Source: an uncultured virus (IMG/VR IMGVR_UViG_3300042695_001232)
Taxonomy: Duplodnaviria > Heunggongvirae > Uroviricota > Caudoviricetes
DNA length: 64,000 bases
Virus record (IMG/VR): IMGVR_UViG_3300042695_001232
Strand: one strand, 5' to 3'
Shown here: positions 11,740-58,325 of the stretch, piece by piece
Layout: each line of letters opens with the position of its first letter
Numbering within the stretch: position 1 is the stretch's first letter
Made by a program: the position numbers and the translations under genes
The notes under the pieces: generated by a model
Seen by the model: the letters and a program-made list of their open reading frames with translations, nothing else
Databases searched by the model: none
What the model was told of the DNA's origin: nothing

Positions 11740-11740
11740 A

Positions 11741-11768
11741 TTGACTTAAACCATATATAGAGTAACAT
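11741..11768 (+). promoter_or_regulatory. Sigma70-like promoter, leaderless geometry
   Basis: TTGACT-16-TAACAT, 6 nt, ATG 11775. Confidence 0.7.
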
Positions 11769-11774
11769 ACGGTT

Positions 11775-13579: not shown

Positions 13580-13640
13580 GATGATAAATATAAATAAAAA
13601 ACGACTTTACAAACTATTTTTCTTACTATACAGTAACCAT

Positions 13641-39061: not shown

Positions 39062-39062
39062 A

Positions 39063-40264: not shown

Positions 40265-41346
40265 ACTTTTTTGAAAAATATTCTGATTGTATCACAGACA
40301 AACAACACATCATGTTCAGTAACTTTTGTGTTGAGGGGCAAATACAAATAGTTTGGTTCAATACTGTTCATCATTGGTAAATCTAACCGTGTACCACCAA
40401 AGATGTGATAAATGTCATTTCGCAAATGAACAAGATTATTGTCAATATCATTTGATGTTAAGTATTGTGCAAGTTCATCTCGATTTTCTGTCAAAATACC
40501 CATCAACCAATATGTTCCTCCACAAATTGGTTTACACTGTGATGGAAGACTTTTCAAATACAGTTCTGCTAGTTTCTTTCTATGAGAAATAATAACTTCC
40601 AAATCATCAATTGCTGCCAAACCAAAACACGCATCGATATCGGTAGGTTGAAACTTGAATCCAGCTTCATACACGTCAAATGTCATTTCACGTCGTTCCC
40701 ATGCTTGGTAATTTTTCTTTTCCTTCAACTCTCTATCAATACCAAACCATCGTAAAAGTTTGGCTCGGTTGTAGGTACTTTCATCATTCAATACGAGCAT
40801 ACCACCATCACATGTTGTAAAATGTTTTATGGCTTGAAATGAATAACAAATATAATCACCTTCGCAATGAGCAAAATGTTGCGCTGCATCAACGATTAAA
40901 GGAATATTGTATTGTTTACAAATGTCGTTTATTTTTGAACTAAAAGGAATACCACCCAAATGTACACCAACAATTGCCTTAGTCTTAGTTGTTATTTTTT
41001 TAATTACATCCTCTGGATCGATGTTTAGATTACTATCAATATCAGCGAATACAATATTTACACCTTTACGTTTCAATCCCATTTGTCCAGCAGTACAATC
41101 CAAAATAGGAACAATTACTTCGTCTCCTTCTTTGATTCCTATAAGGTGGTATGCCAACTCCAGAGCAGACGTTCCCGAATTCAACATCAGTGAGTGTTTA
41201 TAACCAAACACAGTATTAAATTTTTGTTCAAACTGATTTACTTTTGGCCCCTGTCCCAACCACCGACCATTCAATGTATCTTCTATTTCTTTGAGGATTT
41301 TTTCTTTGGGAATATATGGGTAAAAAAGTGGTATTTTTGTATTCAT
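40261..41346 (-). CDS. DegT/DnrJ/EryC1/StrS sugar aminotransferase
   Basis: GPKV..FE, NSGTSAL, DAAQ, SFQAIKHFTTCDGG; start likely 41346 (ATGA overlap). Confidence 0.9.
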   Translation of the reverse strand: MNTKIPLFYPYIPKEKILKEIEDTLNGRWLGQGPKVNQFEQKFNTVFGYKHSLMLNSGTSALELAYHLIGIKEGDEVIVPILDCTAGQMGLKRKGVNIVFADIDSNLNIDPEDVIKKITTKTKAIVGVHLGGIPFSSKINDICKQYNIPLIVDAAQHFAHCEGDYICYSFQAIKHFTTCDGGMLVLNDESTYNRAKLLRWFGIDRELKEKKNYQAWERREMTFDVYEAGFKFQPTDIDACFGLAAIDDLEVIISHRKKLAELYLKSLPSQCKPICGGTYWLMGILTENRDELAQYLTSNDIDNNLVHLRNDIYHIFGGTRLDLPMMNSIEPNYLYLPLNTKVTEHDVLFVCDTIRIFFKKV

Positions 41347-42029
41347 GGTATGTTTTTCCATCGGATGTCTTCTAAAATGACTTGTGTTCTTGTTTTGTGT
41401 TTGTCTCTATCACCATACATATATGGCGTTGGTACGGGATAATGAACAATTGAAGATTTTTGCCAGTTTTCTTCTGGTTTATAAGACGATGAAACATCAA
41501 GTTTTACATCAATAAAATTTAAAAGACCCAGCTTTCTATTCAGAATAATCATATCAGATATATGTGGTTTATCAATACCTGCTACTGGGATAACATCATT
41601 TTCATTAACAGTATAGTTCATAATTATATCTATAATAGTCTCGATCTTATGTTTGGGTATATGTATTGCAGCAGTAGGAACCAAAAATGGGTAACCATGT
41701 GATGTTACAACTTGATCTTCAAAATTAGCAGGTACAAATCCGTAGTTCATTACCGACACTGCACTCATCCATCCACCATATTTTGCGAAACTCAACCATC
41801 TTAGAAAACAATACATGTCATAAATTTTAGGACACACTGTTGGAAAACTTTCTATTTTTTTATAGAACTCGTAATACAATGGATGTTCTTTTGCATCATC
41901 TAATGTAATAATAACAGGATTCCATCCATATCTAGACCAACTTTTCTTCCACAAATCAATCAAAATTTTTTGATCGGTCTTATTAACCCAATTTTCCTCA
42001 ATTGGTTCATAAAATGCGTATACGTTCAT
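41343..42029 (-). CDS. Hypothetical glyco-associated protein
   Basis: WKKSW..GW.P, CFLRWL, HISDM; lies in glycosyltransferase operon. Confidence 0.55.
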   Translation of the reverse strand: MNVYAFYEPIEENWVNKTDQKILIDLWKKSWSRYGWNPVIITLDDAKEHPLYYEFYKKIESFPTVCPKIYDMYCFLRWLSFAKYGGWMSAVSVMNYGFVPANFEDQVVTSHGYPFLVPTAAIHIPKHKIETIIDIIMNYTVNENDVIPVAGIDKPHISDMIILNRKLGLLNFIDVKLDVSSSYKPEENWQKSSIVHYPVPTPYMYGDRDKHKTRTQVILEDIRWKNIP

Positions 42030-44494
42030 AAATATTTATATTGGTGTATTACTACTTTTTGTCCAGTATCGATCATTAATTCTCTTTGTGTTTGGTTGTA
42101 ATAATAATCACCACATCCAGAGTATGACGATGGCAACCAACCAACCTTTTCAAACGATTTTTCTCCGTATTCTTTGAATAATCGTATTCCAATTTCCAAG
42201 TCCCAACTGGTTATTGTATTCATATATGATGATACATCTCCATAAAATTCAAGTTCTGGTTGAAAATATTTTGCGGTATTATTTGTATTGTAAAAAGTTA
42301 ATGCACCATTTGTATATAATGCAGTAGGATTTACATGTTCTATATTCATGTATAATCCACAATCTTTGGAATACTTGTATCTATAATCCATTGATCCCTG
42401 TAACAAATTACCAACACCTTTTAATGGACATTTGAATACAGGTGTACCAGTCATGATAGGTTCATATGGCCAACTCAAATGTTCTTGCCACAAGGTGTCA
42501 TACCAATAGTCTTTCCCTATCATACAATCCCATTCGTAACAAAAAAAATAATCCCACATTTTGCTCTTAGCGATCTTTATTCCTTCAAAAAATGCCCATG
42601 TAGCATACTTGTAATGTACAGGCATCATCCCGTCATACATTATTGGTAAAGGATCAATCTGTATAAATTCAAAAGGATATTTATCGAATCCATCTATACT
42701 GCCATCTGTATACACCACGATTTTTGAATCGTTAATAGAGTGTTTATATTGACTTAGATTATCTAAAGTTTTGGCGTGTTTTCCAATAAGATTTGGTAAA
42801 TACAACAAAATTCCATTTGTTACTCTACTACTAACATTTGGTAGTATAACACTGTCATATTCAAAATGTGCGTTAGTATTTGTTGTTACATGACTATCAA
42901 ATGTAATTTGAAAATGTGAATTGTCTTTTATATGAGTAACACTCTCTATAGATTGTATAAAATGATTATTATTTTTTTCAAATTCAAATTTAAACATCAT
43001 GATTGATAATTTTCGACGATCTTCACTGTTTCCACTTTCATACGGACAGTAATAAGAATCACTCTCAATCAATATTTGTTTTGTATTGACCAACGGTATA
43101 CGTATATAACATTGTTCTCCAATTTCACATACTTTTTCTGATACAAGAGTTTTTGATTCGTCATGAGATGATACTACATATGATTTTATTGTTTTTCGAT
43201 TTACATGGTTACCAAAAACTAGTGTTACCGAATCATAATCATTATTATCAATAACGTCAATAGATGATTTCAGATGCATCCATCTGAAGTGGACATTTTG
43301 ATATAATTCTAAATCATACCATCCACTATTTAAAATTAGTGGAAATGGTGTATTATTGGTCATATGACTAACTGTACTACTAATGTCAGCCATAATTTTA
43401 ATCTTTTCTACAGCATGTTTAATCGAAGGTTTTGCCCAAAGATATGTTTTGTCGAGATCGAGATTGTAAAATATACTATCTTTTACGGGTACCAATTCAC
43501 AATCAACCAACCCTTCATAATTATTCGGAAGAAACTCAACATGACCACCATGGTTTGTAACAATAACTTTTTTTCCTCTATTGTACGCTTCAAAAATTCC
43601 TAAACCTACACCTTCAGATCGTGTTAACTGCACATAACAATCACATTGTTCATGAAGAGATTGTATTTCATCATAAGTGAACATTTCTTTCAAAAAAACA
43701 ATCGGAGGAACATTCGATTCTCCAATTATATTTTTAATTTTCCGTCTACAGTCCTCTTTCTGTAACTCTGAATAATCAAACCCAAACGTTTTAACAAACA
43801 GTATTACGGTATCAGTCTGATTGAACGATTCACAATACGCTTTTATTGTTTCTGATATTCCTTTACGTGTAATATATTGACCGATGGTATAAAACTTATA
43901 TGATGATTGTAAATCAAATTGAGAAAAATCTCCATTGTAAAGGACTTCTCCTTTATCTTCAATTAGTTTCTTTAAATCAACCTTAGTATATGGAAACGTA
44001 ACATTTATATGTGGTTCAACAATAATAGGTTTTGTAACTCCGCTACGTTCAAAAACCTGTTTGTTCCATTCTGTAGGAACACTAACAATTTTTACAATGC
44101 TTTTGTTTATTGCATTTACCCAATTTGGAATAAGAGGATCAAACTCCCAAACAGTTCTACCAATGATATTTCGATTATGAATTTTAACTTCGGTCTTATC
44201 AATCAAATAATCCCACATGTCCGGTGTAGAATGAACAATTATATTTTTATATACAACATTGTTATTTGTAAGTGTTTTAATTGTTTGTTCAAACTCTCCA
44301 GACTCAATTACATGAGTTTGATCAAATTCGCACGGTTTAGTAACTACGTTTACTTTTTTTAATAAATCATAGATATAACCTTTAGCTGCATTAGCATAGC
44401 CACTAACACCCGACTGGTATATATAACAAACACCATCGGTCTGGTTCATACACTGAATATATTCCGGCAAAATATCAAACATTTTCAAATTCAT
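42026..44494 (-). CDS. Multidomain glycosyltransferase (GT4 N-terminal + accessory + GT-A-like C-terminal)
   Basis: SGYA, TVWE, RKG, RSEGVGLGIFEA; YEWDC, NGAL. Confidence 0.8.
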   Translation of the reverse strand: MNLKMFDILPEYIQCMNQTDGVCYIYQSGVSGYANAAKGYIYDLLKKVNVVTKPCEFDQTHVIESGEFEQTIKTLTNNNVVYKNIIVHSTPDMWDYLIDKTEVKIHNRNIIGRTVWEFDPLIPNWVNAINKSIVKIVSVPTEWNKQVFERSGVTKPIIVEPHINVTFPYTKVDLKKLIEDKGEVLYNGDFSQFDLQSSYKFYTIGQYITRKGISETIKAYCESFNQTDTVILFVKTFGFDYSELQKEDCRRKIKNIIGESNVPPIVFLKEMFTYDEIQSLHEQCDCYVQLTRSEGVGLGIFEAYNRGKKVIVTNHGGHVEFLPNNYEGLVDCELVPVKDSIFYNLDLDKTYLWAKPSIKHAVEKIKIMADISSTVSHMTNNTPFPLILNSGWYDLELYQNVHFRWMHLKSSIDVIDNNDYDSVTLVFGNHVNRKTIKSYVVSSHDESKTLVSEKVCEIGEQCYIRIPLVNTKQILIESDSYYCPYESGNSEDRRKLSIMMFKFEFEKNNNHFIQSIESVTHIKDNSHFQITFDSHVTTNTNAHFEYDSVILPNVSSRVTNGILLYLPNLIGKHAKTLDNLSQYKHSINDSKIVVYTDGSIDGFDKYPFEFIQIDPLPIMYDGMMPVHYKYATWAFFEGIKIAKSKMWDYFFCYEWDCMIGKDYWYDTLWQEHLSWPYEPIMTGTPVFKCPLKGVGNLLQGSMDYRYKYSKDCGLYMNIEHVNPTALYTNGALTFYNTNNTAKYFQPELEFYGDVSSYMNTITSWDLEIGIRLFKEYGEKSFEKVGWLPSSYSGCGDYYYNQTQRELMIDTGQKVVIHQYKYL

Positions 44495-45917: not shown

Positions 45918-46106
45918 TTACGTTCCAATTGGACGTATAATTATTTTAATTTTATTTTTTTTAGCAAAATCATACACGACACCATCCTCGGTGTAAGGAT
46001 AATAATTGCAATAAATAATAAACTCACGTTTATTGAAGCCCGTTTCCAAACGGTTATACCATAAACGTTTTCTAAATTTATTTGAGATTTTTTCTGTTAG
46101 TTTCAT
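45918..46106 (-). CDS. Hypothetical protein
   Basis: Start overlaps clamp loader stop. Confidence 0.45.
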   Translation of the reverse strand: MKLTEKISNKFRKRLWYNRLETGFNKREFIIYCNYYPYTEDGVVYDFAKKNKIKIIIRPIGT

Positions 46107-47071
46107 TTTCTCAAATCTGTTAAAAGTTTACTAATACATGCCATCAAAGCAATTTCTTTCAATGGAGGAATCAACAAACTACATTGATACATATACTCAG
46201 AGATAATAATCGTAGCTATTGCCTGCTTACCATTAGCATAATCATCAACCTTCTGATACAACACTGAGAAATAATCATCATACACTTTGATACGCTGATC
46301 CACAACAAATTGTCGAATATCATTAAAGGCATTTGGCTTACCAATACCATTCTTAATCATGTCCACCAACTTTTGATGTGTGTCAGTTTTCAACGAAGAA
46401 TCCTTATTAACCTTCAACTTACCTTCAAAAGTAGATTGTTGTGCCACATTAATAATCTTACGAATATCCGGATAATATGTGTTTACGATATACGCCAAAT
46501 CATCATTCTGATATTCAACGTTTTCTGACTTAAGAATCTTAGTCAAATGTACCGCAACCGAAACCTTAGTCATCGGAGCAATCTCAAAGGTCATACAACG
46601 TGATACAATGGGAAGAATCATCTTCTCATGATAGTTACATGTCAGAATAAACCTCGTAGACATACTAAACGTCTCCATAAGGTTACGAAGAGCCGCTTGT
46701 GCCTCTGGTGACATATAATCACACTCGTCCAGAATAATAATCTTCAGCGGTTTGATACCCACACATGATGCAAAACTCTTAATCTTGGTTCGAACATTCT
46801 CAACCTTATTTTCATCAGATGCGTTGATATACAATACATCACAGTTGATCTGTTTAGTCAACAGTTTAGCCAACGTTGTCTTTCCAGTACCAGCACCGCC
46901 ATACAACATCAAATGTGGAATGTTCTGCTGGTCAATATAACTCTTAATTGTGGTTATGATGTTTTCATTTCCGATATAATCTTCAATAATTGTGGGTCGA
47001 TACTTTTCAACCCACAAACTATGAACCTTCTTATCGTCGGTATGACTCACCTCTTCAAAAAAGGCATCCAT
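46103..47071 (-). CDS. Clamp loader subunit (RFC small / T4 gp44-like)
   Basis: LWVEKYRP, GGAGTGKTT, NASD, ILDECD, AQAALRN, SRC. Confidence 0.93.
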   Translation of the reverse strand: MDAFFEEVSHTDDKKVHSLWVEKYRPTIIEDYIGNENIITTIKSYIDQQNIPHLMLYGGAGTGKTTLAKLLTKQINCDVLYINASDENKVENVRTKIKSFASCVGIKPLKIIILDECDYMSPEAQAALRNLMETFSMSTRFILTCNYHEKMILPIVSRCMTFEIAPMTKVSVAVHLTKILKSENVEYQNDDLAYIVNTYYPDIRKIINVAQQSTFEGKLKVNKDSSLKTDTHQKLVDMIKNGIGKPNAFNDIRQFVVDQRIKVYDDYFSVLYQKVDDYANGKQAIATIIISEYMYQCSLLIPPLKEIALMACISKLLTDLRK

Positions 47072-47076
47072 ATGAA

Positions 47077-47820
47077 TTATTCGTTAGGTTGGACCGGACC
47101 AAAGTGATACGTAGCAGAAAATGTATCAGTATTAAATTCAACTGACGCCAATCCGGCTTCAGACACCTTCAACACAGCATTTTCACACTCGTTGTTTGCA
47201 TCCAACACCGACTTGAAGAAATCAGCGTTGAAATTCAAAGGCTTTTCCAACTTAGCTGTTCCATCCTTGATAGGAACATCCAAAGTAACACGGTTACTAT
47301 TGATTGAAGCATAGCCAAGAACCAACTGAACCTTCTTACTCTTCTTGTTCATCAACAATGTAAACTTACTCTCTTCAGAAAGAGCATCCTTCGCACTACG
47401 ATACTTAGCGATAAATTCCTCTGTAAGATCAATTTCAAAATGATATGGAGGTGTAGACTTGAGACGAGAAGACTTGGGAATTACTGTCAATTCAGCGGTC
47501 ATAAACTGAATTTCAGATGTTCCATCGGAGAATGAAAGAGATGTAACCCGTCCATCAGTTTCATTGACGGTCATGGTAATTTCTTCACCTAGAGCCTTCA
47601 ACATCTTCTGCAACTTGTCAGTGTCATAAACACCGATCTCATATTCGGCGTTCAATTCTTCAACGTTCTTCCAAGTAACGTCATAAATCAAACTCTTATC
47701 GTTAGTAATAGCACTCAAACTGAGTTGCTTGTTTTTAGCGGAAACGTTCCACTTGACTGATGGTACCTCTCCATTAAGAGAGTATTTGTTAATGAATTTT
47801 TGTAGATTTGTCTTTGTCAT
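47077..47820 (-). CDS. DNA sliding clamp (T4 gp45-like)
   Basis: 247 aa, adjacent to clamp loader; IGVYD..KL, VSEAGL...F; promoter TGGACA-17-TATAGT. Confidence 0.7.
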   Translation of the reverse strand: MTKTNLQKFINKYSLNGEVPSVKWNVSAKNKQLSLSAITNDKSLIYDVTWKNVEELNAEYEIGVYDTDKLQKMLKALGEEITMTVNETDGRVTSLSFSDGTSEIQFMTAELTVIPKSSRLKSTPPYHFEIDLTEEFIAKYRSAKDALSEESKFTLLMNKKSKKVQLVLGYASINSNRVTLDVPIKDGTAKLEKPLNFNADFFKSVLDANNECENAVLKVSEAGLASVEFNTDTFSATYHFGPVQPNE

Positions 47821-47871: not shown

Positions 47872-48333
47872 TTAATTTATCCAGTATTCTTCCTCAAACT
47901 GTTCTGGAAATTCTTTTACAAAGTCAGTACATACTGCGTGGCATTTTGTAAGATCTCCCACCCATGAGTGTTCTGGCAAAACACACACACTTTCAGGATA
48001 TAATTGCTTGCCAGGATACGTCCATATAAATCTCTTGCTGGTTAAAACCCAATCTTCAGTGGTATGCCAAAATACATTTACTGTATAGTCTTGTACCAAC
48101 AAATTAAATGCATCACCATTTTTGGCATGTAACCAAAATCTTCGATCTGTTAGAAAATCATATTTTACTTGATACGTTGGACTATCGTGTCCCAAATACC
48201 ACTTTTCATCAGTATACCACACGTCAATTTCAACATCATAATCCAATTTTAATGCTTTTTTAATATAATCGGGATGATTTTCTTTGTCTGAATTTGGACC
48301 ACTTAGATTGCCTCTATGAGAGATGTATTTCAT
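47872..48333 (-). CDS. GDPD/PLC-like phosphodiesterase
   Basis: ISHRGN, EN, DVEIDVW, LGHD, WLHAKN, IWTYPG, VCTD. Confidence 0.75.
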   Translation of the reverse strand: MKYISHRGNLSGPNSDKENHPDYIKKALKLDYDVEIDVWYTDEKWYLGHDSPTYQVKYDFLTDRRFWLHAKNGDAFNLLVQDYTVNVFWHTTEDWVLTSKRFIWTYPGKQLYPESVCVLPEHSWVGDLTKCHAVCTDFVKEFPEQFEEEYWIN

Positions 48334-48349
48334 ACACAATTCGTTTTAC

Positions 48350-49138
48350 TTAAAAGTTCAAATTTGTTTTACTTAATAGTTCATCCACATTTTTAATATT
48401 TCTAAAAATAACATCAAATGTATGACTATTAAAATTTATAACATATGGTGCTAAATTCTCAACGTCAATTAATTCTAAATTTTCTTTCATTATAGATCTG
48501 TATTGATCACTAATGTAACCATGAATTACCATACCATTTCTTATACCATCAACATAAAAATATGAGTTTCCATTGATTTTATTTATTTTAATGTTTTTAT
48601 ATTTAAGATATGAAATGAACAATAAAACTTCAGCACACATTCGTATATCATTGTCTTGATATATAAAATCTTCAGCTAATATACTACTATAAGCTGTTTT
48701 GTATATAGAAAAAACCAATTCTTTAGTTCCAGCAATAATATTATCACATGGATGATATGGAAATTCTGGATTTACAGCAATATTACTACACAAATATTTA
48801 TCATTTATATTTGATCTTACTTTATTTACAAGATATTGAATATTTGAATAACAATGATTTGTTCTAACTTTTACAACATATTGAGTATCACACTGACGCA
48901 ATCCATTTAATACTGAGTTGATATGAAGATAGATATTCTGATGATTGTATATATTGGTAACATCTATATCCGATTCACATATTATTTTATCATAATGATT
49001 TGCATGTTGTGAAACATGGTCCATATATTTTTTATTGGTCGATAATATGACTTTACCAAATCGTTTTAATTCGGCACACATAGGAATGTGCGTTTCATCA
49101 TAATTTCCATGAATTATAAATGTAAAATCACCGAGCAT
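48350..49138 (-). CDS. WavE-like protein
   Basis: FIIHG, QNIYLH..S..NGL, YVVKVRT, HPCD.IIAG, CAE. Confidence 0.6.
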   Translation of the reverse strand: MLGDFTFIIHGNYDETHIPMCAELKRFGKVILSTNKKYMDHVSQHANHYDKIICESDIDVTNIYNHQNIYLHINSVLNGLRQCDTQYVVKVRTNHCYSNIQYLVNKVRSNINDKYLCSNIAVNPEFPYHPCDNIIAGTKELVFSIYKTAYSSILAEDFIYQDNDIRMCAEVLLFISYLKYKNIKINKINGNSYFYVDGIRNGMVIHGYISDQYRSIMKENLELIDVENLAPYVINFNSHTFDVIFRNIKNVDELLSKTNLNF

Positions 49139-49140
49139 AT

Positions 49141-50508
49141 TTAATGTTTTTCGTAATTTTTTAAAAAATTTTCTAAATCTTCAGGGGTTCCAAGACCCCA
49201 CATCTTTTCAATATTAAATGTACGAACCTTTTTACCGTCAGAAATGGCTTCATTGAAGACCGGACACACATAAAATTCATTGTTGACACGAATGTTCTTT
49301 TGAATCATTTGTTCAGCATACTTAACATAGTCACTGCCCTTTCTCCAATAGTATATGCCTACAGTCGCAATATCACTTATAGGACGTTTTTCAGCAACTT
49401 CAGTCACATATCCTAATTCATTGATTTTTGCATAACTCCACTTGGGGTGTGTAGATTTAAACGTAAGAATATTACCATCTAAATCTCCAGTGGTAGATGT
49501 ATAAATAAACTCTTCGTTATTCCACTCAACAAATTGATCACTGTTGGCAATAATCAAAGGTTCATCCTTATTAATATATTGTTTTGCTAATAGTGTCGTA
49601 CAAGCAGCACCTTCGGTAATTCCTTCAATCTGAACAATTTTATTATTTGGACAGAAATTATCAAGTGTATCTTTAAGGTTGTACTTTTCAAAATGACTTT
49701 TCTGAACAATAAAAATATACTTGGCGTCTACGTTCAAATTGTCAACTACCCATTGAATCATGGGCTTTCCACGTACATCAATCAAAGGTTTAGGAAATGT
49801 ATATCCAGCCTTTTCAAATCGACTACCTGCGCCTGCCATTGGTATTAAAACATTCATTTTTCCTCCTTGCCATTTTGGTCTTTTAGTATTTTTATTGATA
49901 CAATCTATATGTTCCGTAATATTTTCATACGTTACATCTGTTGGATTATTTACTCCCAGTAAATAAGCACCACTATTGTTTGCAGCATTACGTCCAATAA
50001 CACTATCTTCAATTATAATGGTTTCTTTTGGTGTTGCACCTGATTGAATCATTGATCTCAAATAGATCTCAGGATGTGGTTTTGGATGTTTTACATCTTC
50101 ATTAGACAAATAAAAATCAACGTATTCCAATAACCCCAACTTTAGTAGAGTTATTTTAACACTATCACGAATACTATTGCTAGCAACAGCAATAGTATAT
50201 TTTTGTTTTAACTTTCGGAGAACTTCTATAAGTCTTGTATCCGGAGTCAATTCACGTAACATTTGTGAGGTGTATACTTGTTTACGAAACCATACACTTT
50301 CAAACTCCATTCCAGATAATCCTTTTTCACGACCAAGTAAATCTAATTTTTTATGAGTACTAAGTCCATCATACTTAGCAAGATGTTCATCGTATGAAAT
50401 CTCATACTTTGGATCGACATCACGTAACGCTTTATTTAAAGCATCATAGTGAAGTTTTTTAGTTTCAACCAAAACACCGTCTAAATCAAAAACAATTAAT
50501 TTTATCAT
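49141..50508 (-). CDS. HAD phosphatase + sugar-phosphate nucleotidyltransferase fusion
   Basis: FDLDGVL, KPHPEIY, IEDS; IPMAGAGSRF..PKPLI, TEGAACT, NSDQ, NNEFYV.P, LGTPEDL. Confidence 0.88.
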   Translation of the reverse strand: MIKLIVFDLDGVLVETKKLHYDALNKALRDVDPKYEISYDEHLAKYDGLSTHKKLDLLGREKGLSGMEFESVWFRKQVYTSQMLRELTPDTRLIEVLRKLKQKYTIAVASNSIRDSVKITLLKLGLLEYVDFYLSNEDVKHPKPHPEIYLRSMIQSGATPKETIIIEDSVIGRNAANNSGAYLLGVNNPTDVTYENITEHIDCINKNTKRPKWQGGKMNVLIPMAGAGSRFEKAGYTFPKPLIDVRGKPMIQWVVDNLNVDAKYIFIVQKSHFEKYNLKDTLDNFCPNNKIVQIEGITEGAACTTLLAKQYINKDEPLIIANSDQFVEWNNEEFIYTSTTGDLDGNILTFKSTHPKWSYAKINELGYVTEVAEKRPISDIATVGIYYWRKGSDYVKYAEQMIQKNIRVNNEFYVCPVFNEAISDGKKVRTFNIEKMWGLGTPEDLENFLKNYEKH

Positions 50509-50518
50509 AAAAGTACAT

Positions 50519-51280
50519 TTAATAACAATGTTCAAAATGATAAAATTTTAAAACAGGATTATTAATATCACCTTTTCGATAAATAATTAATGGAGAATTA
50601 GGTCTTATTGTTTTTATATTATTTAATTCAAATTGTTTTTGTAACAATATATGTGATATACAAGATCCGGTCATTAAACATAAATTTATTATATCGTCAT
50701 ATGTATTACAAAATGTTTCAAATGGTCGTTGTTTTGCAATACATAAATTATCATCGATCCAACCTTCTCCACATCCATAAAATTTATCATCTTTTACCAA
50801 AATGTGATCTACATGAACTATAATTGATGAATCATTCAACGTAGTAAGTTGATGTATATCAATAGGATCACAACATGTTACATCGGGTCTTAATCGAATG
50901 TACAAATCATGTTCAATATTATTAACACGTTCATATTCCTTTACAAATTTATATGCACGCTTTAATTTATACATCCAGTATAGTGTATTAGAAACTTTAT
51001 TTTCTTCAGAATGACCAAATAACTTTACAAGAATTTCATACGGAACCATATCCTTTATCAATCCAGCTGTATAATCAGTAAAAGTTTCAGTATCAAAAAC
51101 TTTTACATATGGTTGATATGCTCTTAACAACATATCTTGATCATGATGATTCCATATAGACATGAAAATATTTACTGTGTGTCCATTGTTAATTAATGGA
51201 TTAATTATATTATTATAATTTTCAAAAACTGATTGTTCAAACAAATCTATTCTTCCAGAAATGATAATTGCTATATTCAT
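50519..51280 (-). CDS. Glycosyltransferase-like protein
   Basis: IAIIISG, IFMSIW, D.YIRLRPD, DD. Confidence 0.55.
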   Translation of the reverse strand: MNIAIIISGRIDLFEQSVFENYNNIINPLINNGHTVNIFMSIWNHHDQDMLLRAYQPYVKVFDTETFTDYTAGLIKDMVPYEILVKLFGHSEENKVSNTLYWMYKLKRAYKFVKEYERVNNIEHDLYIRLRPDVTCCDPIDIHQLTTLNDSSIIVHVDHILVKDDKFYGCGEGWIDDNLCIAKQRPFETFCNTYDDIINLCLMTGSCISHILLQKQFELNNIKTIRPNSPLIIYRKGDINNPVLKFYHFEHCY

Positions 51281-51306
51281 AAACTAATTTTGTAATATTA
51301 GATCCT

Positions 51307-51939
51307 TCACAGTTTGTATGCGGCAGCAATACCCCAATCAGATCCTCCATCACAATACTTTACAACTCTATACATAGATCGATCAACTGCTGGTACAACA
51401 AGATTTGGTCCCGGATGATAGTTAGTATCATGAAAAATAACTACACCTTTATCATCAAGTAAGTCAGTATATGTCCAGTCATTAATAACAGTATTCACTG
51501 AATGCCATCCATCGATAAACAACACTGAACACTTATGAAGTCCGATGGTATTTAAATAAGAACGTATATTTACCTGATCATGTGAATTAGCTTTGATTGT
51601 GTATACACGATTCAAATCATCATTCAAAAAAGTCTTGTCATCAAGATCAATACCACAATAAATACCTTTTTTGGCGTAAAGTAATTGTGTAGTAAACGAT
51701 CTTTTATTATTACGAGCAATACCAATTTCAATAACATTTTTTACATTAACCTTACTCAATATATCATCCAATGCTTCTTTATTAGCATCAGTGATTTCCT
51801 CTATAATTTCATTAAATGGTGCAATATGTCCTGGCCAATCAACATCGTTATCAGCTTCATTTTTGAAAGATGGAAGATAAGAAAGTCCATTGATATTGGA
51901 TGGGGTCTGAGTATATAAATTTTGATCTATCGTAAACAT
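51307..51939 (-). CDS. SAM-dependent methyltransferase (Methyltransf_24-like)
   Basis: IEIGI, FIDGWHS, IFHDT. Confidence 0.75.
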   Translation of the reverse strand: MFTIDQNLYTQTPSNINGLSYLPSFKNEADNDVDWPGHIAPFNEIIEEITDANKEALDDILSKVNVKNVIEIGIARNNKRSFTTQLLYAKKGIYCGIDLDDKTFLNDDLNRVYTIKANSHDQVNIRSYLNTIGLHKCSVLFIDGWHSVNTVINDWTYTDLLDDKGVVIFHDTNYHPGPNLVVPAVDRSMYRVVKYCDGGSDWGIAAAYKL

Positions 51940-51941
51940 AA

Positions 51942-52268
51942 TTAATTTTCGTATTTGTCATTCTTTGAAGATGGAACCTTTACAACAATTAGTTCACAAT
52001 CTTCTAAGAATATAGGTTTTACAGATTCATATCTGTCAATGATAAATATGGTTCCTGCATCAATAACTGTATTATTAATAGTCATTTTTCCACGAATTAG
52101 AAAGTTTATTTCTTCACTTATCTTATGATAGTGTTTTGGCCAATCTTCTCCTTTATGATGAAGTTTATATGATACCTCAAATGATGTGGTTTTAAACACT
52201 GTTGGTTCAAAATCTCCAATAAACCAACCACCTTTATCCATAAATGGTTTAGAATCAAATACTCGCAT
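51942..52268 (-). CDS. Cupin
   Basis: GWFIGDFEP, HYHK.SEEIN...G, VVKVPS..DKY. Confidence 0.8.
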   Translation of the reverse strand: MRVFDSKPFMDKGGWFIGDFEPTVFKTTSFEVSYKLHHKGEDWPKHYHKISEEINFLIRGKMTINNTVIDAGTIFIIDRYESVKPIFLEDCELIVVKVPSSKNDKYEN

Positions 52269-52273
52269 ATCAT

Positions 52274-52909
52274 TTATAAAATTGTTTCGAGTTGTTCTTT
52301 AGACCAAAGTTCCATTGTTCGATATGGATATGGATTAAATCTATCATCAGATTCATTATAATCCACGATAGTATCAATTGGAGTTGGGAAATTCCAAGGG
52401 GAAATATTCCAATTAATTTCTTGAAACGTTTCACCGTTTATAATATTAGGAACATTAATATTACATCTTGGATGATTTGATGTAAGTAAAAACTTAAAGT
52501 CTGTTTTCAATAAATTACTAAAAAACTTTCTTTTCATATCATCGGTAAGATGAAACAAACAATCTCTCACAAAAATCAAATCTTTTGAAGGTAATTGATC
52601 TTCGGTAATATCAAGTTGAATAAATTTGTTTCCATATATATTGTTATTTCTAGAAATCATATCTTCATGAAGATCTCCTCCAATATAATCAAATTCATTT
52701 GGGAACTTTATTAAACTCATCCATTGATGATCTCCACATGGAGCATCTAACATACTGTTAATATTGTGTTTTTTTAAAAACTCTACAAATACACTTCTAA
52801 TAGGACGTGTATACCATAACGTAGATCCGGGACCGCAGTGGTATTCGGATAGAATCAATTGTCCATTGGAAGTGTATCGTACAAAATCATTTTGTAATTG
52901 TTTGTTCAT
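52274..52909 (-). CDS. Class I SAM-dependent methyltransferase
   Basis: CGPGS, LDAPCGD..WM, RDCLFHL. Confidence 0.82.
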   Translation of the reverse strand: MNKQLQNDFVRYTSNGQLILSEYHCGPGSTLWYTRPIRSVFVEFLKKHNINSMLDAPCGDHQWMSLIKFPNEFDYIGGDLHEDMISRNNNIYGNKFIQLDITEDQLPSKDLIFVRDCLFHLTDDMKRKFFSNLLKTDFKFLLTSNHPRCNINVPNIINGETFQEINWNISPWNFPTPIDTIVDYNESDDRFNPYPYRTMELWSKEQLETIL

Positions 52910-53628
52910 ATATAATTTAACTTTCTAAATTTATCTAAATCTTGTGGTATTCCAATAGGAAAGTGTTCATTGAAAAAATACTGAACTACTTTCATTCCTT
53001 TTTTTATCATATAGTTATAACTTGGTGCAACATAAAACTCATTGTTTGATCTGTCGTTTCGTGAAAACATTTCATCACACGAATCAAAGAAAGAAGATCC
53101 TTTTGTCCAAAAATGAAGACCATTGGTAGCATAATTACTTATTACTTCTTTTTCTTTAACTTGTGTAATTAATCCGTCATCATTTAGTCTAACGTAACTG
53201 TTTTTAGGACTATTTGAATAAAACGTACCAAGTACACCATCTGCCGAATTCTTTTCGGCAAAAGACATCAATCGATTTAAGTCTAAGTCAAAAATAACCT
53301 GATCACAGTTTGTTATAATCAACGGTTCATTAATATTAATATGTGGTTTTGAAAAATATGATGTTCTTGCCGGCCCATCTGTCAGTTCATCAATAATAAA
53401 ATATTTAACCATCGATGTATCACAGTAGTCTTTTACATTATCTATAATATTAAATTTCTGTTGATGTTCTTTAAGAATACATACAAAAAACTTTACATCA
53501 CTATTATAAAAGTTATTTATAACTCTAGCTAACATCGGCAATCCATTAACATCCAACAATGGTTTTGGAATTGTGGTATTAAACCTAGTACCCAATCCAG
53601 CAGCTGGTATAACAACATTCATACTCAA
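52906..53628 (-). CDS. Sugar-phosphate nucleotidyltransferase
   Basis: IPAAGLGTRF..PKPL, TDGPA.T, NCDQ, NNEFYVAP, IGIPQDL. Confidence 0.88.
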   Translation of the reverse strand: MSMNVVIPAAGLGTRFNTTIPKPLLDVNGLPMLARVINNFYNSDVKFFVCILKEHQQKFNIIDNVKDYCDTSMVKYFIIDELTDGPARTSYFSKPHININEPLIITNCDQVIFDLDLNRLMSFAEKNSADGVLGTFYSNSPKNSYVRLNDDGLITQVKEKEVISNYATNGLHFWTKGSSFFDSCDEMFSRNDRSNNEFYVAPSYNYMIKKGMKVVQYFFNEHFPIGIPQDLDKFRKLNYI

Positions 53629-54833
53629 GATTTAAGTCCCCATGTTTTAATTGCATTACGATATTCCTTACCATGTTCTCCAGAAATCGACTGTTTCATT
53701 GCACGAACTCCAGCTGCACTCCCCATCGGATGTGACGATATAGCGCCACCAACGTTAGCCATCCAATTACAATGGCCCAACTTATTAATAATATATTGAA
53801 CCAATCCGGGATGCATTCCACAACTCAATGCTGAAACAGAATTTAATGATACTAACTTATTAATTGTTCGAACCAAACTATCTTCATCACTATCCAAATA
53901 TCCACCAATCATACCAACATGAAGAGTAGAACATCCACATCGACTTGCGATCTCAAACAAAACAGATTCGTCGATAGAATAATTGTGTTGAGGATTTGTC
54001 CACATCTTATCTCCGCTCTTTTGATAATGAAGATACAAATTCAATCTTAAATCCTTAACCATTTTATACGCACCATATCCGCTATGAATGTTGATATGAA
54101 GTCCGTTGATACCTAAGTTATGTACTTTACGAATACGATCCTCTAAATATAAATGATCACAAGTTATAGATGGTGCATATACCATTTTGATGTTATTAGT
54201 TCTGAGATAATCACCAATCTTCTCAAGTCGTTTTTCTATAGAACAAAATGACTGATTGGAAAGAATTTCATCTTCTTTTATGAAGTTACATCCGTTATCG
54301 GCGTAAATCTTTACAACCTCAACATAATCTTTAACATTCAAACCAATTTTTGGCTTTATAATTCCGCCAAATAAAGGATAGTTTTCATCTACACCACAGT
54401 ATTTTCTCATTTCTTTTAGACCCAAGTTTGGTCCATTGAATATCTGATCAAACTCTTTTGAAAATTCAATATTTGTAATTCGACATTTCTGAATAATATC
54501 GATATCAAGTTGTCCACCCATAATTGTGGTCAAGAAATGAGTAATTCCATCTTCCTTGTAGTTGAAATTATTGTCAGGATAATAGATATTAATCAACCCT
54601 TCTTTTTCAGAAAAATTATTGGTATCAATTATCTTTGCACAATACGTTTCAAACAATTCCCGAGACTCAAACTCAGATCTTTTTTCAGGATTACCAACAC
54701 TCTGTCCAACTGCAATTGCATATGCAGCATCCCAAAGATTAGTTTTTGATTTAACATCGTATGTGACAATGTTACCGTTGTTATTATTTGTACTTGATAC
54801 CAATACTATGTCGTTTATAACTTTTTTATTCAT
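53625..54833 (-). CDS. RuBisCO-like protein (form IV-type RLP)
   Basis: GGIIKPKIGL, NFIKEDEIL, LHVG, SCGMHPG, GGAISSHPMG..AG..A. Confidence 0.9.
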   Translation of the reverse strand: MNKKVINDIVLVSSTNNNNGNIVTYDVKSKTNLWDAAYAIAVGQSVGNPEKRSEFESRELFETYCAKIIDTNNFSEKEGLINIYYPDNNFNYKEDGITHFLTTIMGGQLDIDIIQKCRITNIEFSKEFDQIFNGPNLGLKEMRKYCGVDENYPLFGGIIKPKIGLNVKDYVEVVKIYADNGCNFIKEDEILSNQSFCSIEKRLEKIGDYLRTNNIKMVYAPSITCDHLYLEDRIRKVHNLGINGLHINIHSGYGAYKMVKDLRLNLYLHYQKSGDKMWTNPQHNYSIDESVLFEIASRCGCSTLHVGMIGGYLDSDEDSLVRTINKLVSLNSVSALSCGMHPGLVQYIINKLGHCNWMANVGGAISSHPMGSAAGVRAMKQSISGEHGKEYRNAIKTWGLKS

Positions 54834-54836
54834 AGT

Positions 54837-55736
54837 TTATTTTATATAGTGTGTTACTGGTTTAATAAAGTTTTTAGTTTTATCAGAATGACATTCATAA
54901 AATGCTTTTATATATGAATTCATATCACGCATTTTATGTCCGGTTTTACACACACTGTCATGCCATGATATCGCATCTATTGCTTTAGTGAATGTTTTTT
55001 TAACAGTGTTGCTTTTAGCAAAAAACGGTTCCATATTATATATATCTAGTATGTTTAAGTTATTTACTACAGTATCAAAATAGTTCTGATATACCATAAC
55101 ACTTATTTTGTTGTCTGGACTCCATGCCATTCTAGGATCGGTACCATAAAAATCTTTAATCCAATAACTAAATATAGGTTCATCACCTTTTATGTTCTTA
55201 CTTTTAAGCCAAGATGCAAAAAGTAATACTACAGGACATAATCTAGTATCAATTTCATCATAAATAAAGTCTTGAGTTAATATTATAGACTCTGCTATTT
55301 CAAATGTATCCTTCAAATTTTTAGTTCGTCCACCCATTACATGGTCACAAAACTGATATGGCCATACTGGATTAATATTGATGGGCACACATGATAACTT
55401 TTCTGAGTTTTTTCTTATAGAATCTACTACATATGGTATTCCGGAATAAAAAGAGTCAGATCTGAACTTAACAGCATATTCAGTGTTTATAGAACACAAT
55501 GCTCTTTTCGTGGATCTCACTTGATGATATACGTTATCATAATTGTAAATTTTCTCTATATTGGTATCGATAATATCATTGAGTATTATCATGTCATACA
55601 CACTTGGGTCAGAAATTTTATCTAAATCAGACATGTAACATGACAAAACAACTTTTCCTTCTTTTTTAAGGTTACCTAACATCAATAAATGTGTAGTGTT
55701 GTATGGTCCTTGAATTATAAACGTAAAATCACTCAT
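54837..55736 (-). CDS. WavE-like protein
   Basis: FIIQGP, NVYHQV.ST, YAVKFRSD, FCDHVMGG; paralog of 48350. Confidence 0.6.
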   Translation of the reverse strand: MSDFTFIIQGPYNTTHLLMLGNLKKEGKVVLSCYMSDLDKISDPSVYDMIILNDIIDTNIEKIYNYDNVYHQVRSTKRALCSINTEYAVKFRSDSFYSGIPYVVDSIRKNSEKLSCVPININPVWPYQFCDHVMGGRTKNLKDTFEIAESIILTQDFIYDEIDTRLCPVVLLFASWLKSKNIKGDEPIFSYWIKDFYGTDPRMAWSPDNKISVMVYQNYFDTVVNNLNILDIYNMEPFFAKSNTVKKTFTKAIDAISWHDSVCKTGHKMRDMNSYIKAFYECHSDKTKNFIKPVTHYIK

Positions 55737-55781: not shown

Positions 55782-58325
55782 TTAAAATTCAAAAAATGCA
55801 GATGCAGCTTTCCAGTTTGAATTAGGATATTCCCAGTTCAAAACTTTATAGAAATCAACAAGTTTACTCTTCAACTCTTGTTCATACATAGTATCACGAT
55901 CCATATATTTTGTAATAATATCCATAATTTGTTGAGGATCAGTTCCATCTGCTTTCATCGCCAAACATTCAATTCCATATTCATTCTGTTTAAGATATAC
56001 CCACTTAATTTTCTGACCATGAAATATCGGAGGAATAATCTTGGTCAAATTAAACTGTGCCAACAAATCGTTGTAATACAACGCTGCCTTAACTTGGGCA
56101 GGAGTTCCAGAAACAATCTGAAATGGTTGACGACTCTTTGGATTATAATCAGCTTTAGTCTTTTCGCTCTTGAACTTCACACTTGTATTTTTAGCAAGTT
56201 CAATCACTCCAAAGTTCTTCATATCTTCTGTAAACTGAAGAATATTGTTGTTGATAGTTTCTTGATCAACGTTTTTCAACAAATCAATCAAGAATTGTTT
56301 CATGAAAGTTCTAAACTTGGCAGGAAAGGATGTTCTCACCACGTCAATTCCCTTGACCTCAAGTTCATCACATTCAACCCCACCCTTATTAATAATGAAC
56401 TGACAATAACGTTTCTTAGCCAACCAAAACGACGACTTGGCGATTACTTCTTGTTTTGCATCAAAACGATGTTGTTTTACGTTAAATAATCGAAGAGCCA
56501 TAATATCAAACATTTGGTTAACATATGTTTGAGCTTCTGCAGTAACTTTCAGAATAGCTTCGGTCATTTGTTTTTCGTCATTTACATCAATGTCAGGCAT
56601 CGTTTTCTTAATAATAGGCAAAGCACTAGTAAAACAAGAATCGGTATCAACGTAAATAACATAATCCTTACCTTTTGCTTCATCACCAAGAACATTCTTA
56701 TAATATTGGTTGATGGCCATATTTGCAGTCTTAATGATACTGACACCACTCAATGTTACTGCTTCAGCATTATCCTTATCATAAAATCGAAATACTGGCA
56801 GACCCAAACAACCATAAATGGAGTTTAGCAAAATCTTTTGAACTTTCTGACGTTGATCATAAAACTCATACAATTCCCATTCCTTTGCATCAGCGTGCTT
56901 CTTGGCCAACTTACGCATTTCTTTACGTTCATTAAACCACTTGATCAAAATACTAGGAATCGTACCTTCTTGTCCGTCTCCTTTTGGAAGTTTATAGACA
57001 GCTCCATTACTAGCGACACTAAGATTATTTTGAATCAACATGTCACTGAATTCTTGTGATGAATACTTTTGTCCGCTTAATACTACATCTGTCAACTTGC
57101 CACGAACAAAGTCTTCTGCATTCCAGTTTTCAACTTTAGCTATTTTAGTTTCAGGACTAATGTTAAGACTAATAATGATATTCGGATACATTGATGTAAG
57201 ATCCAAATCAAACACCCAATCATACCTACCAGGCACAGGAGGTTTAACAAACGCACCTTCAAATCCTTCTTCTCCGTCTTCCAATTGTTGTTCATATTCT
57301 TCACGTCCATCTAATGGTTTATTCGGAGCAACACGTCCTTGACGACGCAAATACATCAATATGGCACCTTCAAGGTATCGTGATGAAGTTCCAAATTGTT
57401 CATAACCAACATGCCCGGTGTGACAGATACGACGAGCAAGATCAATGAATTGTAACTTCTTATCAAGAGCAACCACAATCTTAACGTCATTAAGGTTGTA
57501 TTCAATATACTTTTGAATGTCATCACGATACAAATCATTAAGGCTTCCGGTATAAGTGATCTTGTCGATATTGACCACCTTCTTACCGATAGCACCAAGA
57601 GTATAACTTGGTTCATTTTTTCCACTAAACTTCTGATACAATGTAATATAGTCCATACATGAAATACCAGCTAAAACCATTCGTTTTGCAAAGTTATTAT
57701 AATAACATTCCCGAATCGGACTCAATCTTTTAGCAAAATTGGCACCCATCACTCTCTTGATACGATTATACAGATATGGAACGTCGAACCCATCAATATT
57801 CCATCCAGTAATAATCGTGGGTTGGATTTCCTCCCACTTATTCATAAAATGACTAATTAATGATTCCTCATTGTCAAAACTTTGAATACTTGTATCTGTT
57901 GTTTCACTGTCTTGAAGTTTGCCATCTTTATCCAAAATAAACGCCGTGTACTTGGATGTAGCACTATCGTACAAAGCAATAGCGGTGAGTTCCTTATCAC
58001 CCTCCTCAATAACGGGAAATCCACCTTCGGAACTAACCTCAATGTCAAAAAAGACAATACGATGTCCTTTGGACGGTTCATCACTGTTTTCGTACGCGTC
58101 AATCAACACCCGTGTTTCGGGAGGAACATCACCTTCAAAGATTGAAGGATCATTACGGTTAAAGTTTGTAACCTTTTCTAGTTCATCCCCGTAAACAGAA
58201 CGATAACGTCCACCTGACTTCTTACGATACGCATACTTAGGAACTGGAAATGTAACATGTCCCTTCTGGTCATCCCAAAGGTGCACTGTTTCTGTTTTCT
58301 TATCTATATAAATGTTTTGATACAT
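55782..58325 (-). CDS. Family B DNA polymerase
   Basis: Exo FDIE, GWN..FD, YNLND; pol DLTSMYP, KILLNSIYG, YVDTDS, KKRY. Confidence 0.96.
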   Translation of the reverse strand: MYQNIYIDKKTETVHLWDDQKGHVTFPVPKYAYRKKSGGRYRSVYGDELEKVTNFNRNDPSIFEGDVPPETRVLIDAYENSDEPSKGHRIVFFDIEVSSEGGFPVIEEGDKELTAIALYDSATSKYTAFILDKDGKLQDSETTDTSIQSFDNEESLISHFMNKWEEIQPTIITGWNIDGFDVPYLYNRIKRVMGANFAKRLSPIRECYYNNFAKRMVLAGISCMDYITLYQKFSGKNEPSYTLGAIGKKVVNIDKITYTGSLNDLYRDDIQKYIEYNLNDVKIVVALDKKLQFIDLARRICHTGHVGYEQFGTSSRYLEGAILMYLRRQGRVAPNKPLDGREEYEQQLEDGEEGFEGAFVKPPVPGRYDWVFDLDLTSMYPNIIISLNISPETKIAKVENWNAEDFVRGKLTDVVLSGQKYSSQEFSDMLIQNNLSVASNGAVYKLPKGDGQEGTIPSILIKWFNERKEMRKLAKKHADAKEWELYEFYDQRQKVQKILLNSIYGCLGLPVFRFYDKDNAEAVTLSGVSIIKTANMAINQYYKNVLGDEAKGKDYVIYVDTDSCFTSALPIIKKTMPDIDVNDEKQMTEAILKVTAEAQTYVNQMFDIMALRLFNVKQHRFDAKQEVIAKSSFWLAKKRYCQFIINKGGVECDELEVKGIDVVRTSFPAKFRTFMKQFLIDLLKNVDQETINNNILQFTEDMKNFGVIELAKNTSVKFKSEKTKADYNPKSRQPFQIVSGTPAQVKAALYYNDLLAQFNLTKIIPPIFHGQKIKWVYLKQNEYGIECLAMKADGTDPQQIMDIITKYMDRDTMYEQELKSKLVDFYKVLNWEYPNSNWKAASAFFEF

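Follow-up and report, generated by a model that had tools for sequence, protein, structure and literature searches.

RuBisCO-like proteins (RLPs) of characterised function, i.e. the MtnW/YkrW enolase of DK-MTP-1-P, the 5-methylthioribulose-1-phosphate (MTRu-1-P) isomerase of Rhodospirillum rubrum and OiaX, the 3-oxo-isoapionate-4-P decarboxylase of apiose catabolism, belong to the RuBisCO superfamily and perform enediolate chemistry on phosphorylated keto sugars. To our knowledge, every RLP function established to date belongs to catabolism or salvage. Novel groups of RuBisCO homologues from the ocean were presented in the 2007 Global Ocean Sampling (GOS) paper (PMC1821046), and Jaffe, Castelle, Dupont & Banfield (Jaffe et al. 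2019, Mol Biol Evol; PMC6389311) reported approximately 80 non-redundant sequences related to form IV from contigs of putative phages, some of them of myoviruses and from IMG/VR; the available part of that article leaves the function of the phage RLPs "unclear". In R. rubrum, the RLP is followed by a cupin enzyme in the 5'-methylthioadenosine (MTA)-isoprenoid shunt (Sekowska et al. 2018; PMC6302742), a pairing also seen in the gene cassette described below. Here, we analysed a stretch of 64,000 nucleotides (the window) of an uncultured virus of the Caudoviricetes with T4-like replication genes (IMG/VR record IMGVR_UViG_3300042695_001232, 126 kb, CheckV completeness approximately 40%), which encodes an RLP of 402 amino acids (aa; P0001, 53625-54833, minus strand) in an island of ten genes. 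Judged by gene neighbourhoods in phages, bacteria and archaea, the conserved core of such islands is the RLP with a sugar-phosphate nucleotidyltransferase (NTase) and a small metal-type cupin, usually joined by a miniature GDPD-like phosphodiesterase (mini-GDPD).

Phage RLPs as such had already been described in 2019 (PMC6389311), which qualifies the "candidate undescribed pathway" of the initial annotation. The "form IV-like" clade of that article resembles the family studied here in being phage-borne and far removed from other RLPs, in missing canonical residues and in grouping with Beckwithbacteria, a likeness drawn from its description and not from a sequence-to-sequence comparison, while the available text makes no mention of an NTase, cupin or phosphodiesterase context, of fusions, or of SAR11 or actinomycete members (PMC6389311). 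The words "phage", "viral", "form IV" and "nucleotidyl" are all absent from a 2026 survey of the rubisco superfamily (PMC13454268), and a literature search judged by title and abstract among the papers listed, with subscription journals and supplements outside its range, yielded no published link between RLPs and an NTase, cupin or nucleotide-sugar cassette. We regard the window RLP as a new member of a known phage RLP clade, the conserved partners of which define a candidate biosynthetic pathway. The clade is widespread and no function has been proposed for it since the phage RLPs were reported in 2019.

By its profile matches, the 402-aa protein is a member of the RuBisCO large-subunit superfamily (Pfam RuBisCO_large PF00016, 6.5e-28, 98.3 bits vs a cut-off of 30.1; RuBisCO_large_N PF02788, 1.3e-5, 25.8 bits vs 20.7). 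Among solved structures, the closest in sequence is a form III RuBisCO (3a13, 5e-31) of Thermococcus kodakarensis, an enzyme of the archaeal AMP/pentose-bisphosphate pathway, and the best NCBIfam model is likewise rubisco_III (150 bits, cut-off 497). The protein stays below all form I-III models (TIGR03326, NF003252 and NF010002: 150, 138 and 104 bits vs 497, 438 and 489), below the MtnW-type equivalog cut-offs (124.6 bits vs 409 and 98.1 vs 513.6) and below that of OiaX (98 bits vs 700). None of the NCBIfam equivalog cut-offs was reached by any of five family members scanned (the window RLP and four others), and PHROGs contains no family matching the RLP. Identity to OiaX-type and other plasmid RuBisCO homologues is at most 27.7%. 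Within the comparison set, phmmer scores inside the family are at least 248 bits, and the best score outside it (form III) is at most 96 bits. One further candidate, P0198 (726 aa, RuBisCO domain at residues 335-701), was rejected as a family member, being an ordinary form III-type enzyme (2cwx, 4.6e-103).

Residues were compared in an alignment of 48 family members (13 viral, including the window RLP, and 35 cellular) and 22 references, the latter classed via NCBIfam or via each record's own annotation. Excluded beforehand were the window's own contig (L001), the near-copies L004, L016 and L048 (of L003, L007 and L047), five loci with an RLP truncated at the contig end (L005, L015, L054, L055, L057) and ten surplus form I, II or III references. 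Nine residues are invariant in all 48 members (K175, K177, K201, D203, E204, H327, S379, G381 and G403), among them the activator lysine K201, the metal ligands D203 and E204, and K175 and K177, in which the family agrees with the form I-III references. Eight replacements are equally fixed (N123G, K334Y, H294Q, R295K, E60G, T65N, W66P, G380C) and a ninth, H298D, is found in 46 members. The loop-6 carboxylation residue 334 is Tyr throughout the family, whereas all 12 form I-III references have Lys. Compared with form III, the RLP thus shares the fold, the KPK motif, the carbamate lysine, D203/E204, H327 and the P1 glycines, while K334, H294, R295, H298, N123, E60, T65 and W66 of form III are all replaced. 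This pattern suggests that the RLP retains the metal/carbamate enolisation apparatus, the KPK lysines and the proximal phosphate site, and that an invariant new pocket has taken the place of the distal phosphate site and of the lysine for carboxylation. The protein is predicted to be unable to fix CO2, every residue needed for CO2 addition having been lost. A non-catalytic or decaying passenger gene, to which such losses of canonical residues could also point, is extremely improbable with an intact frame, invariant metal and lysine residues and the same replacements in 48 of 48 members across phages, bacteria and archaea at 35-80% identity.

In a quick IQ-TREE search (LG+C20, 70 rows), the 48 family rows are split off by a branch with an SH-like approximate likelihood ratio test (SH-aLRT) support of 99, apart from forms I, II and III, from OiaX-like RLPs including the named OiaX, and from MtnW-like alphaproteobacterial RLPs. 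The named OiaX (L107) and the OiaX-like rows form a clade of their own with support of 100. A subclade of 27 rows (SH-aLRT 99) holds all 13 viral rows together with a sequence from Beckwithbacteria (L025). With scores and tree combined, the RLP appears to represent a separate, strongly constrained clade outside the characterised RLP clades, and the expectation of the initial annotation that it would fall outside the salvage clades was borne out in both respects.

The family is large and its carriers are diverse. A large protein collection contained 2426 homologues of the RLP (41 representatives at 50% identity and E up to 1e-30), and none was found among 50,697 cultured-phage records at E 1e-5. 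Genomic loci were obtained for 17 members from IMG/VR and 39 cellular ones, and the clade is carried by phages, SAR11, CPR bacteria, DPANN archaea and one actinomycete. The cellular carriers include a complete "Candidatus Pelagibacter" chromosome, many Pelagibacteraceae single-cell genomes, a Verrucomicrobiae chromosome, Elusimicrobia, Beckwithbacteria, Saccharibacteria, many DPANN archaea and Nonomuraea rosea JCM 17326. In the latter, a cultured actinomycete, an RLP-cupin-NTase-GT2 cassette lies between a phage-type integrase and a transposase (L044, 5054-14677), which suggests a mobile island; the same strain also carries a second, OiaX-like RLP (L059). Likewise, one small Woesearchaeota genome (G308) has both a form III RuBisCO (L096, 539 bits, above the equivalog cut-off) and a family RLP (L050).

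When all open reading frames (ORFs) within 5 kb of the RLP were clustered for the 48 non-redundant loci, 45 contained a gene of the NTase/cupin cluster, at most two genes away in all 45 and immediately beside the RLP in 43; the remaining loci were two short contigs and L024. Other clusters were mini-GDPD (29 of 48 loci), SDR/GDP-mannose dehydratase (17), GT-A-like glycosyltransferases (15), WavE-like proteins (9) and FkbM methyltransferases (8). Searches with the window proteins (tblastn) gave an NTase in 16, a cupin in 16 and a mini-GDPD in 14 of the 17 viral loci, the misses being loci cut off at the RLP and, in the case of the mini-GDPD, also L017. The corresponding numbers for the 39 cellular loci were 34, 11 and 21. 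DPANN loci have no cupin and no short GDPD; a full-length GDPD adjoins a second NTase there instead.

Moreover, the partners are fused to each other. NTase (PF00483) and RuBisCO (PF00016) domains occur together in 36 cluster representatives of 523-672 aa, and 38 fused representatives were found in all, with the NTase before the RLP in P0123, the RLP bearing a C-terminal extension in P0137 and an RLP-NTase-cupin order in P0121 (817 aa). The partners themselves are joined as NTase-cupin (L017) and NTase-GDPD (L034). Fusions in both orders and among all four partners seem to us the strongest evidence for one shared pathway. The link between RLP and NTase foreseen by the initial annotation is thereby upheld by both adjacency and fusion, while a link to WavE-like genes, which it had also expected, fails: such genes were present in 9 of the 48 loci, and tblastn recovered them from none of the other 16 viral loci.

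The NTase of the window (NT1, 240 aa, 52906-53628, minus strand) matches PF00483 (NTP_transferase, 5.9e-10, 39.6 bits vs a cut-off of 21.2). The stop codon of the RLP (TGA) overlaps a TTG, and the likely true start of NT1 is an ATG 2 nt further on (53622), which opens MNVVIPAAGLGTR, a classical NTase N-terminus with a GxGTR motif (AAGLGTR); the stop-start overlap given by the initial annotation is thus correct or very nearly so. A second NTase (NT2; PF00483, 4.7e-10, 39.9 bits vs 21.2; motif AGAGSR) forms one half of the HAD-NT2 fusion described further below. The best matches of NT1 among solved structures are 4evw (a nucleoside diphosphate (NDP)-sugar pyrophosphorylase), HddC and RmlA, and both enzymes, by these matches and by the GxGTR motif, resemble sugar-1-phosphate nucleotidyltransferases. 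Neither reached an NCBIfam equivalog cut-off, and both are only distantly similar to GDP-sugar enzymes.

The cupin (108 aa, 51942-52268, minus strand) carries an HxHxxxxE motif, of which H37, H46, H48 and E53 are invariant across 23 sequences. Its profile matches are a quercetin dioxygenase (1.6e-6) and a small "mannose-6-P isomerase" cupin (7zvm, 6.7e-5). A Pfam scan of the 23 family members returned only the generic models Cupin_7 (18 of 23, best 4e-7) and Cupin_2, and no ARD, RmlC, FdtA or phosphomannose isomerase model. In ManC/AlgA, the type II phosphomannose isomerase/GDP-mannose pyrophosphorylase, the NTase domain precedes a C-terminal metal cupin. The L017 fusion and the C-terminal two-thirds of P0121 have the same domain order, and a GDP-mannose dehydratase often adjoins the cassette. 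The two systems differ in that no member of the cupin family matches the mannose-6-phosphate isomerase model of Pfam and in that the NTases are distant from GDP-sugar enzymes.

The mini-GDPD (155 aa, 47872-48339, minus strand) has approximately 60% of the usual GDPD length and probably starts at the third codon (MKYISHRGN). The residues of its catalytic motif (HRG...ExD...HD) are invariant, and across 31 sequences so are H8, R9, N11, E37, D39, H51, D52, H71, K73 and D139. Pfam gave no match (PF03009); a profile search matched the GDPD 3i10 (7e-6), and an AlphaFold2 (AF2) model with a predicted local distance difference test (pLDDT) score of 94 had GDPDs as its top Foldseek matches at a probability of 0.97-1.0, with an E of only 5e-3. 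Profile and model together point to a GDPD-like phosphodiesterase, and its gene seems to be tied to an NTase rather than to the RLP itself.

The surroundings of the cassettes are rich in functions for glycan synthesis. Pfam scans of 66 neighbours from six selected cellular loci and of 101 neighbour-cluster representatives from all loci revealed transferases (GT2, GT4, GT9, GT11, GT17, GT25, GT61, mannosyltransferase, PMT, WavE), many O- and C-methyltransferases, one carbamoyltransferase, sugar-nucleotide enzymes (GDP-mannose dehydratase/SDR, DegT, RmlC) and genes for assembly and export (Bac_transf, a Wzx-type flippase, an ABC transporter). No mutase of the phosphoglucomutase/phosphomannomutase (PGM/PMM) type was seen in these scans, and the only kinases among the 101 representatives were one GHMP kinase-NTase fusion and one glucokinase. 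The former is a 600-aa protein adjoining the RLP at a Woesearchaeota locus (L029, 6079-7881), the sole such fusion in the 48 neighbourhoods.

Given the linkage to NTases, the fusions and the glycan setting in both phages and cells, a biosynthetic role in NDP-sugar formation is the best reading of the RLP. We consider it fairly probable that the island is a module for nucleotide-sugar biosynthesis and transfer in which the RLP prepares or modifies a sugar phosphate for NDP activation and use in a glycan. This retains the central proposal of the initial annotation, apart from its WavE and HAD components, which are not conserved. The kept carbamylated-lysine/Mg2+ site and the KPK lysines imply that enolisation beside a phosphate-bearing carbon has been retained. 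Concerning substrate and order of steps, we infer that the RLP would convert an available phosphorylated ketose via an enediolate into an unusual sugar phosphate (by isomerisation, epimerisation or rearrangement), that the cupin may carry out a metal-dependent isomerisation or epimerisation of this product, and that the NTase would link the resulting sugar phosphate to a nucleotide. The GT-A-type and WavE-like proteins might then transfer the sugar and the methyltransferases O-methylate it, decorating a glycan that in phages could belong to the virion or to the surface of the infected cell. The lack of kinases and mutases in the core suggests that the starting compound is already phosphorylated as needed, which fits the preference of the RuBisCO superfamily for ketose-1-phosphates. 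The characterised RLPs stand apart in separate clades and in catabolic or salvage roles, vs the NTase and glycosyltransferase partners found here. A positive result would mean a new reaction class in the RuBisCO superfamily and an unknown sugar in the surface glycans of very abundant aquatic cells and phages. Adjacency and three natural kinds of fusion name the partner enzymes of the RLP, which makes the question directly testable.

Several observations weigh against this interpretation. A core that contains neither a kinase nor a canonical mutase leaves the origin of the sugar 1-phosphate unexplained. Nor does the interpretation account for the GDPD-like gene, which in cyanophage S-CAM9 accompanies HAD-NT2 but no RLP or cupin. 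Fusions in both orders fit an RLP that acts before the NTase as well as one that acts after it. L024, a 66-kb contig of a metagenome-assembled genome (RLP at 7947-9137), has no NTase, cupin or GDPD within 5 kb and is the only long locus of this kind; its RLP lies next to genes for an arginase, an ornithine cyclodeaminase and an amino-acid permease. The tree that separates the clade came with long-branch and composition warnings and holds no named Bacillus MtnW, Chlorobium, IV-AMC or IV-GOS references, although solved structures of several reference types missing from it score far below in-family sequences. Further, cupins and HAD proteins are also partner families of RLPs in salvage pathways, as described in the accessible text of Sekowska et al. 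(PMC6302742).

A bolder version of the biosynthetic role, which we rate as rather unlikely, is that the clade opens a nucleotide-sugar route free of kinases and mutases from a ubiquitous ketose 1,n-bisphosphate or ketose 1-phosphate. Candidate starting compounds would be fructose-1,6-bisphosphate, sedoheptulose-1,7-bisphosphate or a pentulose analogue. The RLP could then make an aldose-1-phosphate-type product, in a reversal of the logic of ribose-1,5-bisphosphate (R15P)/MtnA isomerases, or a branched sugar phosphate through a ketol rearrangement; either product might be a direct substrate of the adjacent or fused NTase. If true, the RuBisCO fold would here serve biosynthesis and the building of glycans for the first time, and would do so in SAR11, CPR, DPANN and many phages.

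Alternatively, the RLP might act after activation: the NTase would first make an NDP-sugar, and the RLP would enolise an NDP-keto-sugar in order to epimerise it or shift its keto group together with the cupin and an SDR or dehydratase; its P1 site would then hold the beta-phosphate. The NTase-RLP order of P0123 and the SDR/GDP-mannose-dehydratase cluster of 17 loci (out of 48), which often follows the cassette immediately, agree with this idea, as do the conserved glycine-rich P1 site and an invariant Asp in the distal site that would repel a second phosphate. However, the RLP comes first in the RLP-NTase and RLP-NTase-cupin fusions, 31 of 48 loci including the island of the window are without an SDR, and we know of no RLP that uses a nucleotide-linked substrate. 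An RLP working on activated sugars appears to us to have only a small chance of being correct.

A salvage-type shunt has still less in its favour and is decidedly improbable. In it, the RLP would isomerise a 5-substituted ribulose-1-phosphate that stems from MTA or from 5'-deoxyadenosine; the product would pass to the cupin, and the resulting deoxy-pentulose or polyol phosphate would be activated by an IspD-like NTase. Aerobic methionine salvage does use HAD and cupin enzymes, and NT1 shows a weak IspD-like similarity at its N-terminus (Pfam IspD, 4.9e-6, below the cut-off). An RLP followed by the cupin enzyme methylthioxylulose-5-phosphate (MTXu-5-P) methylsulfurylase, giving 1-deoxyxylulose 5-phosphate (DXP), is moreover a known pair (PMC6302742, in its accessible text). 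The statement of the initial annotation that no salvage partner genes are present consequently needs to be narrowed, as cupin and HAD proteins do belong to such partner families (PMC6302742), while it is correct for the MtnA/R15P-isomerase family PF01008 and the MtnB family PF00596, which are both absent from the 126-kb record (approximately 40% complete). In addition, the RLP is placed outside the MtnW-like clade and below the MtnW cut-offs, and its neighbours are glycosyltransferases and not sulfur or isoprenoid genes. Around three alphaproteobacterial MtnW-like RLPs, which may not be of the R. rubrum type, neither the hidden Markov model of the cassette cupin nor that of the mini-GDPD gave a match over approximately 7 kb, even at E 10.

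The position of the island between DNA polymerase and clamp-loader-like genes, i.e. among replication genes, could be explained if the nucleotide sugar served to hypermodify phage DNA, and the window also holds thymidylate synthase, dUTPase, dihydrofolate reductase (DHFR) and nucleoside deoxyribosyltransferase-like genes. We regard this role as very unlikely because the cassettes of cells are located in surface-glycan loci, together with GT9, PMT, Bac_transf, Wzx and ABC-transporter genes, and because the thymidylate-synthase homologue belongs to an ordinary phage family (phrog_160, 4e-89), with no hydroxymethylase seen. The island is also mosaic in the related contigs L003 and L004 though its flanks are 93-95% identical.

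Turning from the core to the island as a whole, the ten minus-strand ORFs reported by the initial annotation form an unbroken run from 55736 to 47872 with intergenic gaps or overlaps of at most 26 nt (299, 402, 240, 211, 108, 210, 253, 464, 262 and 155 aa in order), and all ten gene labels found support from Pfam, PHROGs, profiles, AF2/Foldseek or Atlas. A promoter and terminator scan gave 80 promoter-like sites vs 79.4 expected, i.e. no signal. Upstream lies a T4-like family-B DNA polymerase (847 aa, 55782-58325, minus strand; DNA_pol_B, 1.1e-35), the closest cultured relative of which is that of Microcystis phage Mel-JY01 (44.7% identity). Downstream, a 247-aa protein (phrog_12062) and an AAA clamp-loader-like ATPase (322 aa) occupy 46103-47820 on the same strand (Pfam, PHROGs). 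In L003 and L004, the 247-aa protein and the ATPase are 85-93% identical to those of the window and the island genes 51-85% (tblastn), while identity is 93-95% for the polymerase and clamp-loader genes on the flanks and the accessory island genes differ. The island can thus be regarded as a mosaic around a stable core.

Judged by gene neighbourhoods, some of these accessory functions (both WavE-like proteins, one methyltransferase and the HAD domain) are not conserved with the RLP. WavE-like protein 1 (299 aa, 54837-55736, minus strand) and WavE-like protein 2 (262 aa, 48350-49138, minus strand) are paralogues (36% identity, E 1e-44) that match the Pfam WavE family (PF07507) below its cut-off of 27 bits, with 0.0019 (18 bits) and 4.4e-4 (20 bits), respectively. 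Their nearest Atlas clusters are viral WavE clusters (0.97-0.98), and WavE-like protein 1 is a probable glycan transferase. Among the 17 viral loci, both WavE-like genes and the gene for methyltransferase 1 (MT1) were found in the window's own contig only (tblastn). MT1 (211 aa, 52274-52909, minus strand) belongs to phrog_3382 (methyltransferase, 7.3e-38; Methyltransf_25, 0.0031). Methyltransferase 2 (MT2; 210 aa, 51307-51939, minus strand) has a weak match to Methyltransf_24 (1.9e-4) and homologues of 83% identity in L003 and L004, its cluster being present in 4 of 48 loci. The GT-A-fold glycosyltransferase (GTl; 253 aa, 50519-51280, minus strand), a member of the GT-A-like cluster counted above, has no Pfam match; its AF2 model (pLDDT 81.5) matched GT6 alpha-1,3-GalT, ABO and BoGT6a in Foldseek at E 9e-8, and its RxD and D177 are invariant. 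A kinship of the GTl family with WavE-like protein 2 was considered and dismissed, hhalign giving no relation (probability 0.1).

The HAD-NT2 fusion (464 aa, 49141-50535, minus strand) combines a HAD half (HAD_2, 3e-29; DLDGV motif) with the NTase half described above, and the best matches among solved structures are beta-phosphoglucomutase (6e-16) for the former and 4evw (7e-21) for the latter. Since the HAD domain is closest to beta-phosphoglucomutase, although below the respective cut-offs (TIGR01990, 92.8 bits vs 189.4; TIGR02009, 102 vs 153), a role as a mutase appears at least as likely as one as a phosphatase. Homologues of HAD-NT2 (56-58% identity) occur in Synechococcus phages without an RLP, e.g. 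in cyanophage S-CAM9 within a glycosyltransferase island that also holds a second HAD gene and a mini-GDPD homologue (41%). Together with the rarity of HAD-NT2 near the RLP (3 of 48 loci, within 5 kb), this places the HAD step outside the conserved RLP pathway and gives no support to the dephosphorylation step of the initial annotation as a part of it. At the site of the mini-GDPD homologue of S-CAM9 (L111, 9715-10167; 41%, 3e-32), the record shows only a shorter hypothetical protein (9886-10173).

A second and larger set of glycan genes is encoded on the strand of the island at 21112-22341 and 35654-44494 of the window. It comprises a GDP-mannose 4,6-dehydratase (8.7e-98), a methyltransferase, GT32-like, GT25, GH130-like and GNAT proteins, a DegT aminotransferase (2.9e-61) and an 822-aa GT4 protein. 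By annotation, the dehydratase, DegT and GNAT genes look like an N-acetyl-perosamine-type route, the GDP-mannose for which might be supplied by the cupin, HAD and NTase genes of the island.

Elsewhere in the window, the thymidylate synthase homologue (15324-16508) has 394 aa vs a profile of 266 positions matched by residues 6-394, which implies an insertion of approximately 130 aa. An RNA-repair-like cluster (6914-14476) encodes a T4 Rnl1-type ligase, a GmrSD_N-like protein of 528 aa, an Rnl2-type ligase with a PHA02142 OB domain, an AAA_33 kinase-like protein and a cyclic-phosphate-processing receiver domain. Three homing-endonuclease-like genes (one GIY-YIG with NUMOD3 and two HNH) sit amid core genes at 5957-6886, 20398-21042 and 23242-23958, and a protein of 607 aa (31681-33504) carries an ArdC-N anti-restriction domain (3.5e-11).

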